A stretch of DNA of 64,000 bases from a virus. The stretch's first letter is position 1. Every line of letters starts with the position of its first letter. Under the pieces are notes generated by a model. It had not been told where the DNA came from. It saw only the letters and a list, made by a program, of their open reading frames with translations, and ran no database searches. The DNA lies in the IMG/VR virus record IMGVR_UViG_3300044640_002221, positions 1 to 64,000 of that record. One strand, 5' to 3'. A program made the translations under genes and the position numbers. Below are positions 55,872-64,000 of this stretch, one piece after another.

Positions 55872-56123
55872 TCAATGAAGCCAGATTGGTCCAATATTGT
55901 ACTCAGCTCGTCCGGTCAAGGGACTGCCAGCAGCTTTAAAGAACTCAGTCTCTACTTCCACCATTATTCTGTGAATCAGCTCTGCTGCTTCTTTAGCCTC
56001 CGCGTCCCAAGCAAACTTAGGTGTAGTTGGTCTACCATCTTTATCAATTACGTTACCGTGTTTATCAAAGAAGGTTTTAGTCTCATCTATCCAAGTCTTA
56101 CCCGGAGCGCGGGCGTTTAGTTC
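55872..56123 (-). CDS. polA: Family A DNA polymerase, last exon (exon 4 in window)
   Basis: Begins GAA CTA (E of VHD-E) and ends AKEAAELIHRIMVEV...GRAEYNIGPIWLH*, a typical PolA C-terminus. Confidence 0.9.
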   Translation of the reverse strand, partial: ELNARAPGKTWIDETKTFFDKHGNVIDKDGRPTTPKFAWDAEAKEAAELIHRIMVEVETEFFKAAGSPLTGRAEYNIGPIWLH

Positions 56124-56274
56124 CACTTGTGTTACGAGTAGCCCGGTTCCGACTACTCTCTCTAGCTTTCACTAGAGGTCAGATCATATCATCCTCAGTT
56201 ATGAGGGAGCCTGTTTCGAGTGTCCGACACCCTACGTCTTGTGACTGACCGTTGAACCTTGTACGTGCTATAAG

Positions 56275-56355
56275 TGGATGCTAAAAGAGTTGAACTTTTC
56301 TTGGGTTTCCCCACGACTTATGAGGTCGTTGCCTAAACCGCTCGGCCAAGCATCC
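56275..56355 (-). tRNA. tRNA with CAU anticodon (elongator Met or Ile2), type II long variable arm, inside intron 4
   Basis: Acceptor GGATGCT/AGCATCC + A; D arm GCC/GGC; anticodon arm ACGAC-CTCATAA-GTCGT; V arm GGG-GAAA-CCC; T arm AAAAG-TTCAACT-CTTTT; 81 nt, CCA not encoded. Confidence 0.9.
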
Positions 56356-56427
56356 ATCTTTATAGTTTAGCACCTTGGCTGCTGATTGTCCATATCCTTG
56401 TTCTTTTTAAACCTGATGACAGCTAGT

Positions 56428-56703
56428 TTAACAAAGGTCTAAGTTACCTTCTGAACTATAATCTACGTCTGTCAGATGGTCTTGACAACATAAGTAAACT
56501 TTTGCGTCTGCTTTTACCAATCCATCTGCTAACAACTTCTGCACCTTATCTAAAAGCTGCTGAACTGTTATTGCTTCTGGGGGTTTAGGAGCATAGTTTT
56601 GAGGTACTAGTAATGCCCCTATGGTCTTTAAACCTGGATGAGGTGCAGCACCACTTTTGGTTATTGTTTTAGGAAGTATGTAAGGTTCTGTCATGTCTTC
56701 CAC
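56428..56703 (-). CDS. Hypothetical 91-aa protein in the P5 region of intron 4
   Basis: ORF flanked by complementary UGAUAGUUA/UAGCUGUCA and CCUUG/CAAGG segments; no endonuclease motif seen. Confidence 0.55.
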   Translation of the reverse strand: MEDMTEPYILPKTITKSGAAPHPGLKTIGALLVPQNYAPKPPEAITVQQLLDKVQKLLADGLVKADAKVYLCCQDHLTDVDYSSEGNLDLC

Positions 56704-56815
56704 TATTTATTAACTATCATTATAATCACGCTTGCCGTTTCCAGCTACGTTGTGGTGAACAAGGCTCTGAGGAATTTCCAGCAATTTAAGCTCTTTACCC
56801 ACGACCAACTAATCA

Positions 56816-56905
56816 ATCGTGCACCGCGTTTAATATTATAATTCCTGTTCCTTTAGCCTCCTTTCGTACGCGTATCATGGCTTCTTTCATCATCTGGGCG
56901 CATTC
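56816..56905 (-). CDS. polA: polA exon 3 (90 nt)
   Basis: Translates ECAQMMKEAMIRVRKEAKGTGIIILNAVHD, the segment between IQG and motif C. Confidence 0.92.
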
Positions 56906-57000
56906 CGATTATGTTATCACTGAGCTTTTTATCTCAGTTTCTAAAGATTTCTCCTTAGTCCAGGGCACGTCTTGAACAGTAAGTGGGTAGTAGGTTTGGT

Positions 57001-60512: not shown

Positions 60513-60741
60513 GGTTATTTCTTTTAGTCTTGGTAATAATCTGATTGAAATTGTTCTTCTACGAGGTTATCAAGCTGTTCTGTAGCTATATGAGCAAAGC
60601 ATACATGGAGGCTGCTCATATAGTCGGAAGCTTCATTACCTATTACTAAAGCATTCTCTAAGTTACTAGCCAACACATCTCTATAGATTAAAAAGTCTGG
60701 CAAAACCTCTGTACTGACGGTTTAACGTCAGTTTGTATCTA

Positions 60742-62546
60742 TTACTGCTTTTCTTTCTCCTCAATGTCATCAGCTTCCTCCCTGTAAGAGTTCAGTTGTG
60801 CAACTATTTGTTCTGCTGTTTCTCCTTCTGGGAGGGTTACAGCTCCGCTGAGAACATAGTCTTGCAGCATTGTAATAATATCTTGGCTCATGGTAGCTTA
60901 GTCTTGTTGTTCTGTTTATACCAATCTGGGTTGTACATTTCTACTTTCTGATCAATCTCTAGCTTTAGACAAGCCTCTAAATTTACTTCAACCACATTAA
61001 GAGTGCGGACTGCTACACTAGATAACCGTTGAACCTGTAAGTTTGGTTCATCCTCCTCTGTTAAAGTCTTTAAAACTTCTAGAGCACTCATCGTGGTTGG
61101 TAGAGTAATGATAAACGGATTGAGCCCTAGCCAATGAAGAGCTGCACTTGTTGACCAAGTAGCATCTAGCTCATGAGAACTTTTATAGCCAGTCTCAAAA
61201 GCAGCTTTAGCTTTTTCTGCTGAACGAAAAGTGCATAGAGACTTATCTTCAGTAAGAGACAAAAAAGCTTTTCCTTGAGTTCTAAAGATTATGAAGTAGT
61301 TATTCACTGCGTTTACCAAACCCTTTGGCTGACCTTAAATCTGCCTTAGTTCTTATTTTAGGCGTAGGCTGACAGGGGGAGGAGTCATCAATAAAGGATT
61401 TAATTTCTGCTCTATCAACTTGACTTATCCCATAGCTGTTAATTAGTCCTCTGTCATCAGACCAGACAGGACTAGCGACAAATATTTCTGCTTCACGCAT
61501 TACTTAACTCCTTTAGGCTTACCAAATCCTCTAGCTGCTGGCAGTGGTGGATTGAGATAACCAAACTCCCCCTGGTCTAAGACAAAGGTTTCAAAGAAAA
61601 CTAAGTCTTTCTGCATCTTCTCGACGTTAGACCCTTCTGGTGGGGTTATAGCCCCACTCTGAATGAGCTTTATCAACTGAATGGAAGTCTTTTCACGTTT
61701 AGTCATCTTGATTTACCTTTGGTAGTCTTCTACCTATTTCATAGTTCTCAAACATCCACTTAACTACGTGGTCTACTAGATAGTGTTTTAACTGCCAGTA
61801 ACTTGACCTGCCCATCTGTTCTTCAGCTACCTGCATACAAGCCTTTAACTTTTCAGACCCTTCAGGTTCATGGTTAGAAGTTTTAGTAAGAGCTTGGCTT
61901 ATCTTATCAAGAATCTCCTCTACATTATCTGCTGGTCTTGTTTGATAAACAGTTACTCCACCAGACAGATTACCTACTGGTGGAGTGGCTAAGTTTTCTA
62001 CTGGTGGAGTGGCTAAGTTTTTAGGAATCCTGTAAACCTGAAAGTAACAGTCGGGCGCGGCAAGTAGCATCCTAGTGAGAGTTACATTCTTGTAGTCTGG
62101 AAAGTCTTTAACTAATTCTTCCATTTGGGTATACAGCTTCAGCAGCTCTCTAGGTAGCATATAGAGAGTCTTAGCATACTGTACATAATCAAAGTCTTGT
62201 TCTGTCATAATGTTTAAGAGTTTTGTTCTTTATTCTTGAAAAAGGTCAGCCAATCTATTACTACATCTAATAGAGCGTCTTTTGCTTCTGGAGATAGTCT
62301 TGCTACCATTTCCACCAAATCTCTCTGAGCATCTTCAGCAAACAACTTGGGCTGATAGACTCTTCTAAACTCCTTTCTAATCTCTCTAAGCTTTGGCAGG
62401 TGCGCTTTTAGTAAAGGGTTAACCTCCCAAGCTGCTATTATGCTTTCAATAATGTCTGAAGCTTCTTTTACTACAGGACTAAGACTAGTCTCTATAGCTT
62501 GCTCAATAAGCTGGGTAGCTTCTTCTACATACTCTTGTTCTGTCAT
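60742..62546 (-). CDS. Run of coupled small hypothetical ORFs inside L8 of intron 1 (60742-60891, 60888-61319, 61300-61500, 61500-61706, 61699-62208, 62214-62546)
   Basis: ORF track plus one 49-aa ORF read manually; overlapping stop/start codons. Confidence 0.6.
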
Positions 62547-62888
62547 TTAATTCTCCGATGCAGATGGTTTGTACATCCAATTATCTCCTCCATGCGGCGG
62601 AGGAACGTCTATAAACCCTAATCTTTCATACCAAGCTTTAAGGTCAGTCTTTCCTAAGCCTTGATTAAACGGAACAGACTGCAAACAAAAGGTTGCTTTA
62701 GGATGAGCATCAAAGACCTCTTGCAAAAGCTGCGTGCCGTAACCTTGTCTCTGAAACTCAAGGTTGATGAACAAGTTTATTATCTGAACTTGTTTACCCT
62801 CTTTGACTGTGAATGTGCCGCCTATTATCTCACCTGTGTCTGACAGAAGCTCATAATAGGCAGCTTTTAACTTGTTTATTTTTACCAT
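62547..62888 (-). CDS. GNAT-family acetyltransferase (intron 1 cargo)
   Basis: INLFINLEFQRQGYGTQLL (acetyl-CoA motif A) and LKAWYERLGF. Confidence 0.88.
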   Translation of the reverse strand: MVKINKLKAAYYELLSDTGEIIGGTFTVKEGKQVQIINLFINLEFQRQGYGTQLLQEVFDAHPKATFCLQSVPFNQGLGKTDLKAWYERLGFIDVPPPHGGDNWMYKPSASEN

Positions 62889-62920
62889 TGCTTGCTTTTA
62901 AGTTGCTGGGCGCTCGTGTG

Positions 62921-63544
62921 CTACAAGTAATTCATGTCTATTTTATAAGACATAGATGGAATGATAAATGGCTCAACAAGGGCTATAAATTTCTTTGCTT
63001 CCTTTGTTCCACAAGTTAATCTGTACCAACCTTTGTTTAGAACCTGACCAAAGTTAATAGCGTACTTTTCTTTAAAGAAATCTATGATAATTTGGTTTTC
63101 TTCTTTGGTTCTATGAGTGTTCAGATATATTCTTCTAGCGTGAATCTTTCCATTTCTTTTAGGTAAAGAAAGATTTCCATCGTCCATATACCAAATAGCT
63201 ATTCCTTCTGGCGTTAGGTAGTTTAAAATCTTTCTTTGATAGGTTTTTATCCCATTTGGGTACATCCACTTTCTTAAATAACGAAACCATCTATGCTGTT
63301 TTGAAATTTGCACACCTGGATACCCATTATTATTTATCTCCTGGATTTTTGGTTGTTTGCCCCCGAGAATTGAGTGTAGTAACTTAGCTTTGTGCTCCAG
63401 GTACTCTCTTTGCTTTGCTGAGTGTCGCAACTTCAAAGTATAGTACGTTTTAGGAACAGTACATCTTTTGTTAACTACAGGCGTTACGTACCCGTCCCCT
63501 AAGACCATTGCTATTAGCAGAGATTTTTTTAACTGTCTTTCCAT
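62921..63544 (-). CDS. LAGLIDADG homing endonuclease (intron 1)
   Basis: LLIAMVLGDGYV and GIAIWYMDDGNL motifs (LAGLIDADG_2 type). Confidence 0.92.
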   Translation of the reverse strand: MERQLKKSLLIAMVLGDGYVTPVVNKRCTVPKTYYTLKLRHSAKQREYLEHKAKLLHSILGGKQPKIQEINNNGYPGVQISKQHRWFRYLRKWMYPNGIKTYQRKILNYLTPEGIAIWYMDDGNLSLPKRNGKIHARRIYLNTHRTKEENQIIIDFFKEKYAINFGQVLNKGWYRLTCGTKEAKKFIALVEPFIIPSMSYKIDMNYL

Positions 63545-63723
63545 CTTCTTTTACAAACCTTTTGGTTGTACTTTATGTAAATTGTAGCTTAGTCGTTACA
63601 CTTTCCTACCATCCCTGATAGGCTTAGCTAGGTATTACCCTTCCTTGCTGCAAAGGTTTGGGGCTTTCACCTAATTCACCCAGTTGTCATCCACCAATCA
63701 CTTGGTGGCGGGGCTGAGAACCA

Positions 63724-64000
63724 ACCCATCTCCATAATCCTGATACTGGAGAGATAGCATATCCTCTGGCGGCTGCGATCGCTCCGAACTCTTCTGCCCA
63801 AGCGTAATAACCTGGATAGGTAGTTCTGTGTCCTGTTAACCAAGACTGAGCTACTTCTTCTTTTACACAGAAGTTTTCAGCAGCTGTTGAAGCGGACATA
63901 AGATATATGCTACCAAAGTTGAGAGATTTTGCACTCTTCCTTGCTCCGCTTTTGTCTGCTATTGCTCTCCATTCGTGCTCTGGTTTTCCTTCAAATAAAT
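63724..64000 (-). CDS. polA: Family A DNA polymerase, exon 1 in window (continues beyond the right edge)
   Basis: The frame from 63998 reads ...SGARKSAKSLNFGSIYLMSA (motif B)...YPGY...RGYAISPVSGLWRW-GT. Confidence 0.92.

Follow-up and report, generated by a model that had tools for sequence, protein, structure and literature searches.

Predicted paralogous group I introns with unusual cargo in the split family A DNA polymerase of an uncultured freshwater cyanophage

The IMG/VR virus record IMGVR_UViG_3300044640_002221 is a single sequence of 136,923 base pairs (bp; completeness 71% according to CheckV), and the window analyzed here comprises its bases 1–64,000. The source phage is an uncultured freshwater cyanophage and a distant relative of Microcystis phage Ma-LMM01, its polymerase sharing 23–28% identity with the polymerases of Ma-LMM01 and Pseudanabaena phages. 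In this lineage, the family A DNA polymerase (polA) is encoded as two genes, an N-piece and a C-piece. The C-piece is the catalytic part with palm, fingers and motifs A to C, and it lies on the minus strand at the end of the window, whose edge falls inside the gene. Only this C-terminal gene is interrupted in the source phage, not the N-piece. We propose, with a probability of roughly 0.85, that it is interrupted by five paralogous group I introns, of which four are within the window, splicing being predicted from the sequence.

Exons and predicted product of the interrupted gene

Exons, introns and all features given below with window coordinates lie on the minus strand. Exon 1 (63724–64000, continuing to 64154 past the window) carries motif B and ends in RWV in phase 2; the fragment alone matches Pfam DNA_pol_A with 31.8 bits and aligns without gaps to the C-piece of a relative, P0083. 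Exon 2 (59205–59274, 70 nucleotides (nt), DEENAKG to AIQG) was aligned to its counterpart in the relative L004 and to P0083. Exon 3 (56816–56905, 90 nt, ECAQMM to NAVHD) ends within motif C, and exon 4 (55872–56123, 252 nt, ELNARAPG to IWLH) runs to the stop codon. A further exon outside the window (65991–65878) supplies the catalytic Asp of motif A and has a probable TTG start codon following an AAGGA box. The initial annotation had joined the four exons of the window in one frame ending at the stop codon, and all of its coordinates hold, as does its balance of 7440 nt of intron (4449 + 884 + 1415 + 692) around 160 nt of internal exon (70 + 90). Joining all five exons gives a coding sequence of 957 nt for 318 amino acids (aa) with a single terminal stop.

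Uninterrupted C-pieces are known from P0083 (316 aa) and P0085, both in the range of 315–316 aa, and P0083 matches Pfam DNA_pol_A (PF00476) with 98.5 bits. By BLASTP, the predicted spliced product is 71% identical to the intron-less P0083 over 306 aa. The only gap is a single residue far from every junction, and the junctions RWV/DEEN, IQG/ECAQ and VHD/ELN run through uninterrupted, which is the ungapped match that had been anticipated for a correct reconstruction. In the alignment, motifs A (D-Y-x-x-Q-E-L), B (R-x-x-x-K-x-x-x-F-x-x-x-Y) and C (H-D-E) are all found in the spliced product. In a further relative, P0087, exons 3 and 4 are contiguous, and in P0086 and P0088 stand-alone 84-aa genes are called whose start is the start of exon 4.

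The position of the junctions agrees with the signals of group I introns. As had been claimed, every 5′ exon ends in a U paired to a G in helix P1 and every intron ends in a G, and in all five introns no position other than that of this terminal G restores the frame as well. P1 has a length of 4–7 bp, with the guide sequence nearby. Four introns share the three junctions of the window because exons 2 and 3 are separated by two of them, I2a and I2b, arranged head to tail, so that the count of the initial annotation was right. It had also suggested looking for additional introns beyond position 64,000, and a fifth, I0, lies just outside the window.

Comparative data came mainly from L004, a 197-kilobase (kb) IMG/VR contig whose N-piece is 73% identical to that of the source phage and which was the only close genomic relative from two viral scans. 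A metagenome scan with an alignment of the C-piece returned distant polymerases only (a junction lay within one of its two patterns), and megablast of the region against phage records gave nothing relevant. L004 has the same exon layout and contains I0, I1, I2b and I3, the latter with its tRNA gene. It lacks I2a, all three LAGLIDADG open reading frames (ORFs) and a 91-aa ORF of I3. The introns are thus polymorphic in presence and absence, I2a being missing in L004, I3 in P0087 and all introns in P0083. Between the source phage and L004, 201 exon codons gave a ratio of nonsynonymous to synonymous substitution rates (dN/dS) of 0.11 at a dS of about 1.35, i.e. the exons are under purifying selection, a constraint under which the gene would have to be expressed as a joined product.

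The N-piece comprises the 3′–5′ exonuclease and the start of the polymerase domain, and its approximately 80 homologues all end soon after a PNxQQI segment. The initial annotation had not recognized this two-gene organization, nor that the C-piece alone is interrupted. In the source phage, the split between the N-piece (466 aa) and the C-piece is seen in the region L001 10878–12554 (genome 65878–67554, minus strand), and the N-piece has a conserved tail of 25 aa downstream of PNSQQI. An 86-aa ORF spans the gap between the two genes in another frame and has a counterpart of 93 aa in L004. In several relatives, inteins, some of them with HNH or LAGLIDADG domains, are inserted in the polymerase (L004 9983–12391 and 13251–15095; P0001, P0004, P0005, P0013, P0082, P0084), either before the SSSxPN segment of the N-piece or inside motif B (SAK/SLNF). 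Since these two intein sites add to the intron sites, the polymerase carries at least seven different self-splicing insertions across the lineage.

The five introns and their cargo

Of the 10.1-kb gene span, about 90% is intron sequence. The five introns are paralogues, as their 5′ and 3′ domains align among all five. P3, P4, P6, P7, P8 and P9 were found manually in every intron with conserved joining segments, and each of I1, I2a, I2b and I3 has its own P3/P7 core, as had been proposed. The sequences of P3 and P7 vary between the five introns, while their complementarity is kept, and P3, P7, P8, P9 and P9.1 covary both among the paralogues and between the source phage and L004. All eight 3′ tails that were tested fold as P9 plus P9.1 with different stems (z −2.3 to −5.5). 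The ribozyme parts are 75–94% identical to those of L004, compared to 76% for the exons. Judged by helix position, the introns appear IA-like, with one or two hairpins between P7 and the 3′ strand of P3 (the P7.1/P7.2 position) in all five introns.

In the whole 137-kb record, matches to the Rfam family RF00028 are confined to the polA region. With its gathering score of 50, only I2a exceeds the threshold within the window. The match of I1 is partial, and I2b and I3 are recognized weakly and only through their compact L004 orthologues; therefore I1, I2b and I3 were assigned by manual helices, paralogy and covariation. Among the L004 orthologues, I0 scored 81.8 bits, I1 37 and 31 bits in two parts, I2b 25.5 bits (E-value 0.002) and I3 16.5 bits (E-value 0.07). 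The 3′ ends given by Rfam were rejected as splice sites, as they fall 35–38 nt short owing to an extra P9.1 hairpin. Terminator-like sites showed no excess within the introns.

A purine-rich loop motif of 8–10 nt in P9.1 is nearly identical in I0, I1, I2a and I2b (window 59300–59290, 58347–58337 and 56931–56921; L001 ~9185); in I3 the motif is instead the 5′ strand of P3. A pairing partner for the conserved loop motif was searched for, and none was found. In L004, I1 and I2b have P9 hairpins (16772–16790 and 18270–18288) that are identical to each other and differ from both orthologues in the source phage, which suggests sequence exchange between paralogous introns.

Intron I1 (59275–63723) has a length of 4449 nt. 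Rfam gave a partial match at 63677–63587 (26.4 bits), and P1 (63727–63721/63717–63711), P3 (63683–63677/62912–62906) and P7 (63594–63590/59344–59340) were located manually, followed by P9, P9.1 and, at 59275, the terminal G. The P7.1 loop, closed by a stem at 63588–63582/62926–62920, contains a LAGLIDADG gene (62921–63544, 207 aa; Pfam LAGLIDADG_2, 1.2e-29). The 5′ strand of P8 (62887–62908), in which the first cargo gene has its start codon, pairs with a 3′ strand at 59348–59369. This is the longest inverted repeat in the intron, with 22 nt, 95% complementarity and arms 3517 nt apart. In L004, a perfect 21-bp stem of different sequence occupies the same place. The L004 intron is matched by Rfam in a 5′ module without the 3′ strand of P7 and without P9 (37 bits) and a 3′ module consisting of the 3′ strands of P8 and P7 and of P9 only (31 bits). 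We read I1 as a single predicted ribozyme whose two modules are joined by P8. Two separate introns flanking a cassette were considered and rejected, because the 5′ module lacks the 3′ strand of P7 and P9, the 3′ module lacks P1 to P7, and the P8 stem of 21–22 bp joins them.

The P8 loop of I1 carries a cargo block of about 3.5 kb (59442–62888) with about 10 tightly packed ORFs on the same strand according to the ORF list, the sizes being 113, 110, 169, 68, 66, 143, 49, 59, 290, 41 and 43 aa. The first of them, with 113 aa, is a GNAT acetyltransferase (Pfam 6e-9; PHROG acetyltransferase), and searches of Pfam and PHROG matched no family for any other cargo ORF. The loop measures only about 1.5 kb in L004, where just the 68-aa and 49-aa ORFs have counterparts, and therefore it appears to turn over genes while the stem persists. 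A family of small proteins of 49–70 aa occurs twice in the I1 cargo (61500–61706 and 60742–60891, minus strand) and also in L004 (15844–16056), as the sole cargo in common.

I2a (58321–59204, 884 nt; RF00028 63.7 bits, cut-off 50) is a typical group I intron, inserted precisely where the last base of exon 2 would otherwise be followed by the first base of I2b. Its LAGLIDADG gene (58365–59003, 212 aa; Pfam LAGLIDADG_3, 2.5e-12) is assigned to the P8 loop by its place in the Rfam alignment, and the 3′ end given by Rfam misses the terminal G by 38 nt because of the extra P9.1 hairpin. I2a is precisely absent from L004, in which exon 2 adjoins I2b directly, and hence it is an unambiguous insertion of 884 nt at the boundary of exon 2 and I2b. 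The neighboring I2b (56906–58320, 1415 nt) was recognized by manual P3, P7 and P8 helices (P8 58128–58115/56987–56974). Its 5′ core is 89% identical to that of L004, compared to 76% for the exons, and compensatory changes between the two phages are found in P8, P9 and P9.1. The guide sequence of I2b pairs both with the last bases of exon 2 and with the first bases of I2b. The P8 loop holds two ORFs of 202 and 136 aa (57001–57979), which are kept in L004 with 74% nucleotide identity and matched no endonuclease family in Pfam and PHROG. The nearest Atlas clusters of the 202-aa ORF are hypothetical phage proteins and include no nuclease, with a weak lead to DUF3102.

Intron I3 (56124–56815, 692 nt) has a 6-bp P1 with the U-G pair at the splice site, no P2, and manually identified P3, P4, P6, P7, P7.1/7.2, P8, P9 and P9.1. 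In its 3′ domain, I3 can be aligned with the other four introns and folds alike, and it is missing from P0083 and P0087. An extension of P5 contains the 91-aa ORF (56428–56703), which is part of an insertion of about 300 nt missing in L004 and for which no family was matched. At the tip of a P6 extension lies a tRNA gene (56274–56355, anticodon CAU) detected by ARAGORN and scoring 50.8 bits with the Rfam tRNA model. It has a long variable arm and no encoded CCA, is closed by a flanking 6-bp stem and is kept in L004 with one base different. The other three tRNA genes of the phage form a cluster about 46 kb away. The tRNA has its CAU anticodon on a class II body with a 3-bp D stem, a long variable arm and A73, a body typical of Leu or Tyr tRNAs; candidates for its amino acid are Met, Ile after lysidine modification, or Leu.

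The fifth intron, I0 (L001 9155–10877, genome 64155–65877, minus strand), splits motif A (DYAG/QELI). A 113-aa ORF with a double helix-turn-helix is located between its 5′ splice site and the guide sequence, which is about 370 nt away, and in our own reading the last exon bases and this distant guide appear to change together between the source phage and L004. In the P8 region, I0 has a 369-aa LAGLIDADG ORF flanked by what look like tRNA-like halves (T arm and 3′ strand of the acceptor, L001 ~9235–9265), where ARAGORN made no call.

Proposed splicing and alternative explanations

If the introns are active, the guide of each would pair with the U-ending 5′ exon to form P1, an external guanosine would cut at this site, and the exons would be ligated after the terminal G. 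The product would be an mRNA for a polymerase subunit of 318 aa with motifs A, B and C intact; all introns would have to be removed to obtain it, since motifs A and C are themselves split. In this logical sense, replication might be gated by the four splicing events, as the initial annotation had proposed. In I1, the 22-bp P8 would unite the ribozyme halves and close a 3.5-kb loop of ordinary phage genes. At the double junction, I2a would be removed first, exon 2 would thereby meet the first bases of I2b, and P1 of I2b would be re-created in a twintron-like manner at an intron boundary. As P1 of I2b probably forms only once I2a has been removed, we infer that splicing is ordered here. After excision of I3, its tRNA would probably be freed by RNase P and RNase Z.

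Several points weigh against this interpretation. Rfam alone does not support I3 (E-value 0.07) and supports I2b weakly and only in L004. The covariation between orthologues consists of two sequences in addition to the paralogues, because there is one close genomic relative. The reading does not account for the exact placement of I2a at an exon-intron boundary, and translation of the 3.5-kb insert could hinder the folding of I1. A promoter-like signal stands just ahead of the 3′ half of I1, so that the joining may be partly or entirely in trans.

It is conceivable, if somewhat unlikely, that the introns have a group I architecture but cannot splice on their own. Certain introns, above all I1, I2b and I3, would then need host or phage proteins or splice inefficiently, thereby limiting or timing the output of polymerase. 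The large peripheral inserts and the weak Rfam scores of I2b and I3 are in line with this, as is the finding that several predicted introns of Bastillevirinae were spliced only in infected cells (PMC11878797). On the other hand, the conserved core helices and joining segments show covariation, and the sequence indicates no maturase, a role which the LAGLIDADG proteins could nevertheless take.

The promoter-like signal is a purine-rich stretch of 21 nt, of which a perfect copy (59414–59434) lies 45 nt upstream of the 3′ strand of P8 in I1 with no ORF downstream. With up to 3 mismatches, the window has 8 copies, all on the minus strand (1325, 4499, 27080, 37027, 42519, 45098, 53969 and 59414), compared to 0.02 expected. 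The genome has 18, of which 17 are on the minus strand and most are 14–24 nt before a start codon. The stretch may act as a phage promoter or as a signal for translation. If it is a promoter, I1 might be spliced wholly or partly in trans, with one RNA consisting of exon 1, the 5′ half of the intron and the cargo, a second RNA that starts at 59434–59414 and comprises the 3′ half together with exon 2 and all that follows, and P8 assembling the halves. We regard this as unlikely. In its favor, the copy in I1 differs from most of the other 17 in that it precedes no ORF, a similar purine-rich tract is present at the equivalent position of I1 in L004, and a P8 as long as 21–22 bp would be expected of a split intron. 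However, the signal could equally serve translation, all pieces are collinear on the same strand, and no terminator-like site on this strand was found in the cargo ahead of the signal, for which reason read-through transcripts capable of splicing in cis should exist.

That the exons are relics of a decaying polymerase gene or encode separate peptides, with no joined mRNA, is highly improbable. For it, 90% of the gene is intron and exon 4 happens to begin at GTG and is called as an 84-aa ORF. Against it, dN/dS is 0.11 across every small exon, with dS being saturated, the joined product alone has motifs A, B and C in intact form, exons 2 and 3 (23 and 30 codons) lack start codons, the third junction falls between D and E of motif C, and L004, at 73% identity, has the same layout.

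The idea that these introns act as landing pads for accessory genes gains comparative support from the different size and content of the P8 loop in I1 and from the absence of the 91-aa ORF and the LAGLIDADG genes in L004. It also proved correct that three introns of the window have cargo other than endonucleases, namely the ORFs of I1, the two ORFs of I2b and the tRNA and 91-aa ORF of I3. Going beyond this, we tentatively suggest, as a possible but rather doubtful extension, that the loops are heritable cargo bays. Their genes and tRNA would be expressed from the polymerase pre-mRNA or the excised intron, homing by the I1 endonuclease would copy the P8 cargo into co-infecting relatives, and an internal phage promoter could allow some of the joining to proceed in trans. 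If this is true, a group I intron would be a vehicle for the horizontal transfer of ordinary phage genes.

If splicing is confirmed, it follows that a ribozyme of a bacterial virus is able to come together again across 3.5 kb of translated sequence, that introns can serve as hotspots where genes are gained and lost, and that the expression of a tRNA and of accessory genes can be tied to that of the polymerase. An essential replication gene would then tolerate five introns, three of which house other genes or a tRNA. The pair I2a/I2b offers a natural test of ordered splicing and of the spread of introns to new sites. For annotation, it is relevant that such polymerase genes are currently listed as unrelated fragments.

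Relation to known systems

Phage group I introns are usually viewed as selfish elements of about 0.3–1 kb with at most one homing endonuclease. The introns described here go well past descriptions of phage introns in number, size, arrangement and cargo, and our literature search found no phage precedent. In a survey of Bastillevirinae from 2025, genes had up to 2 or 3 introns, averaging 802 nt and with 0 or 1 internal coding sequence, an endonuclease (PMC11878797).

The two-gene organization of the polymerase is shared with Ma-LMM01, in which gp180 and gp178 are annotated separately, the cut also follows the PNxQQI segment and a small ORF lies in between. In contrast to the C-piece of the source phage with its five introns, gp178 is uninterrupted as annotated; relatives have inteins at two other polymerase sites.

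Introns in the DNA polymerase genes of SPO1, Bastille and other Bastillevirinae, and Pf-WMP3 are likewise of group I and of the self-splicing type, carry homing endonuclease genes and occupy conserved catalytic sites of family A polymerases. Several introns per gene are possible, and in phiNIT1 one site region is reported to have been colonized sequentially (PMC11878797, PMC3428280, PMC3984707). The source phage differs in having five introns in a coding sequence of 957 nt, one of them (I1) with 4449 nt and about 11 ORFs, as well as two ORFs outside known nuclease families in another intron, a tRNA in a third and two introns abutting at one splice site.

For genes inside P8, the closest analogue appears to be the giant group I intron ND5-717 of hexacoral mitochondria (PMC6545197). 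As predicted for I1 and I2b, its P8 contains genes other than endonucleases, and the core is reassembled around kilobases of coding sequence; common ancestry is not claimed. ND5-717 belongs to mitochondria and carries canonical mitochondrial genes (PMC6545197), whereas the cargo of the source phage consists of variable accessory ORFs and I1 additionally holds a homing endonuclease gene.

The arrangement of I2a and I2b resembles twintrons and the adjacent phage introns with exon skipping in Twort orf142 and SIOphi, insofar as these are described where cited in PMC11878797, in that removal of one intron affects the splice sites of its neighbor. Unlike in these cases, I2a does not lie within I2b, and no exon stands between the two. 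Its position coincides exactly with the I2b 5′ splice site, and the same 5′ exon would serve both introns for P1.

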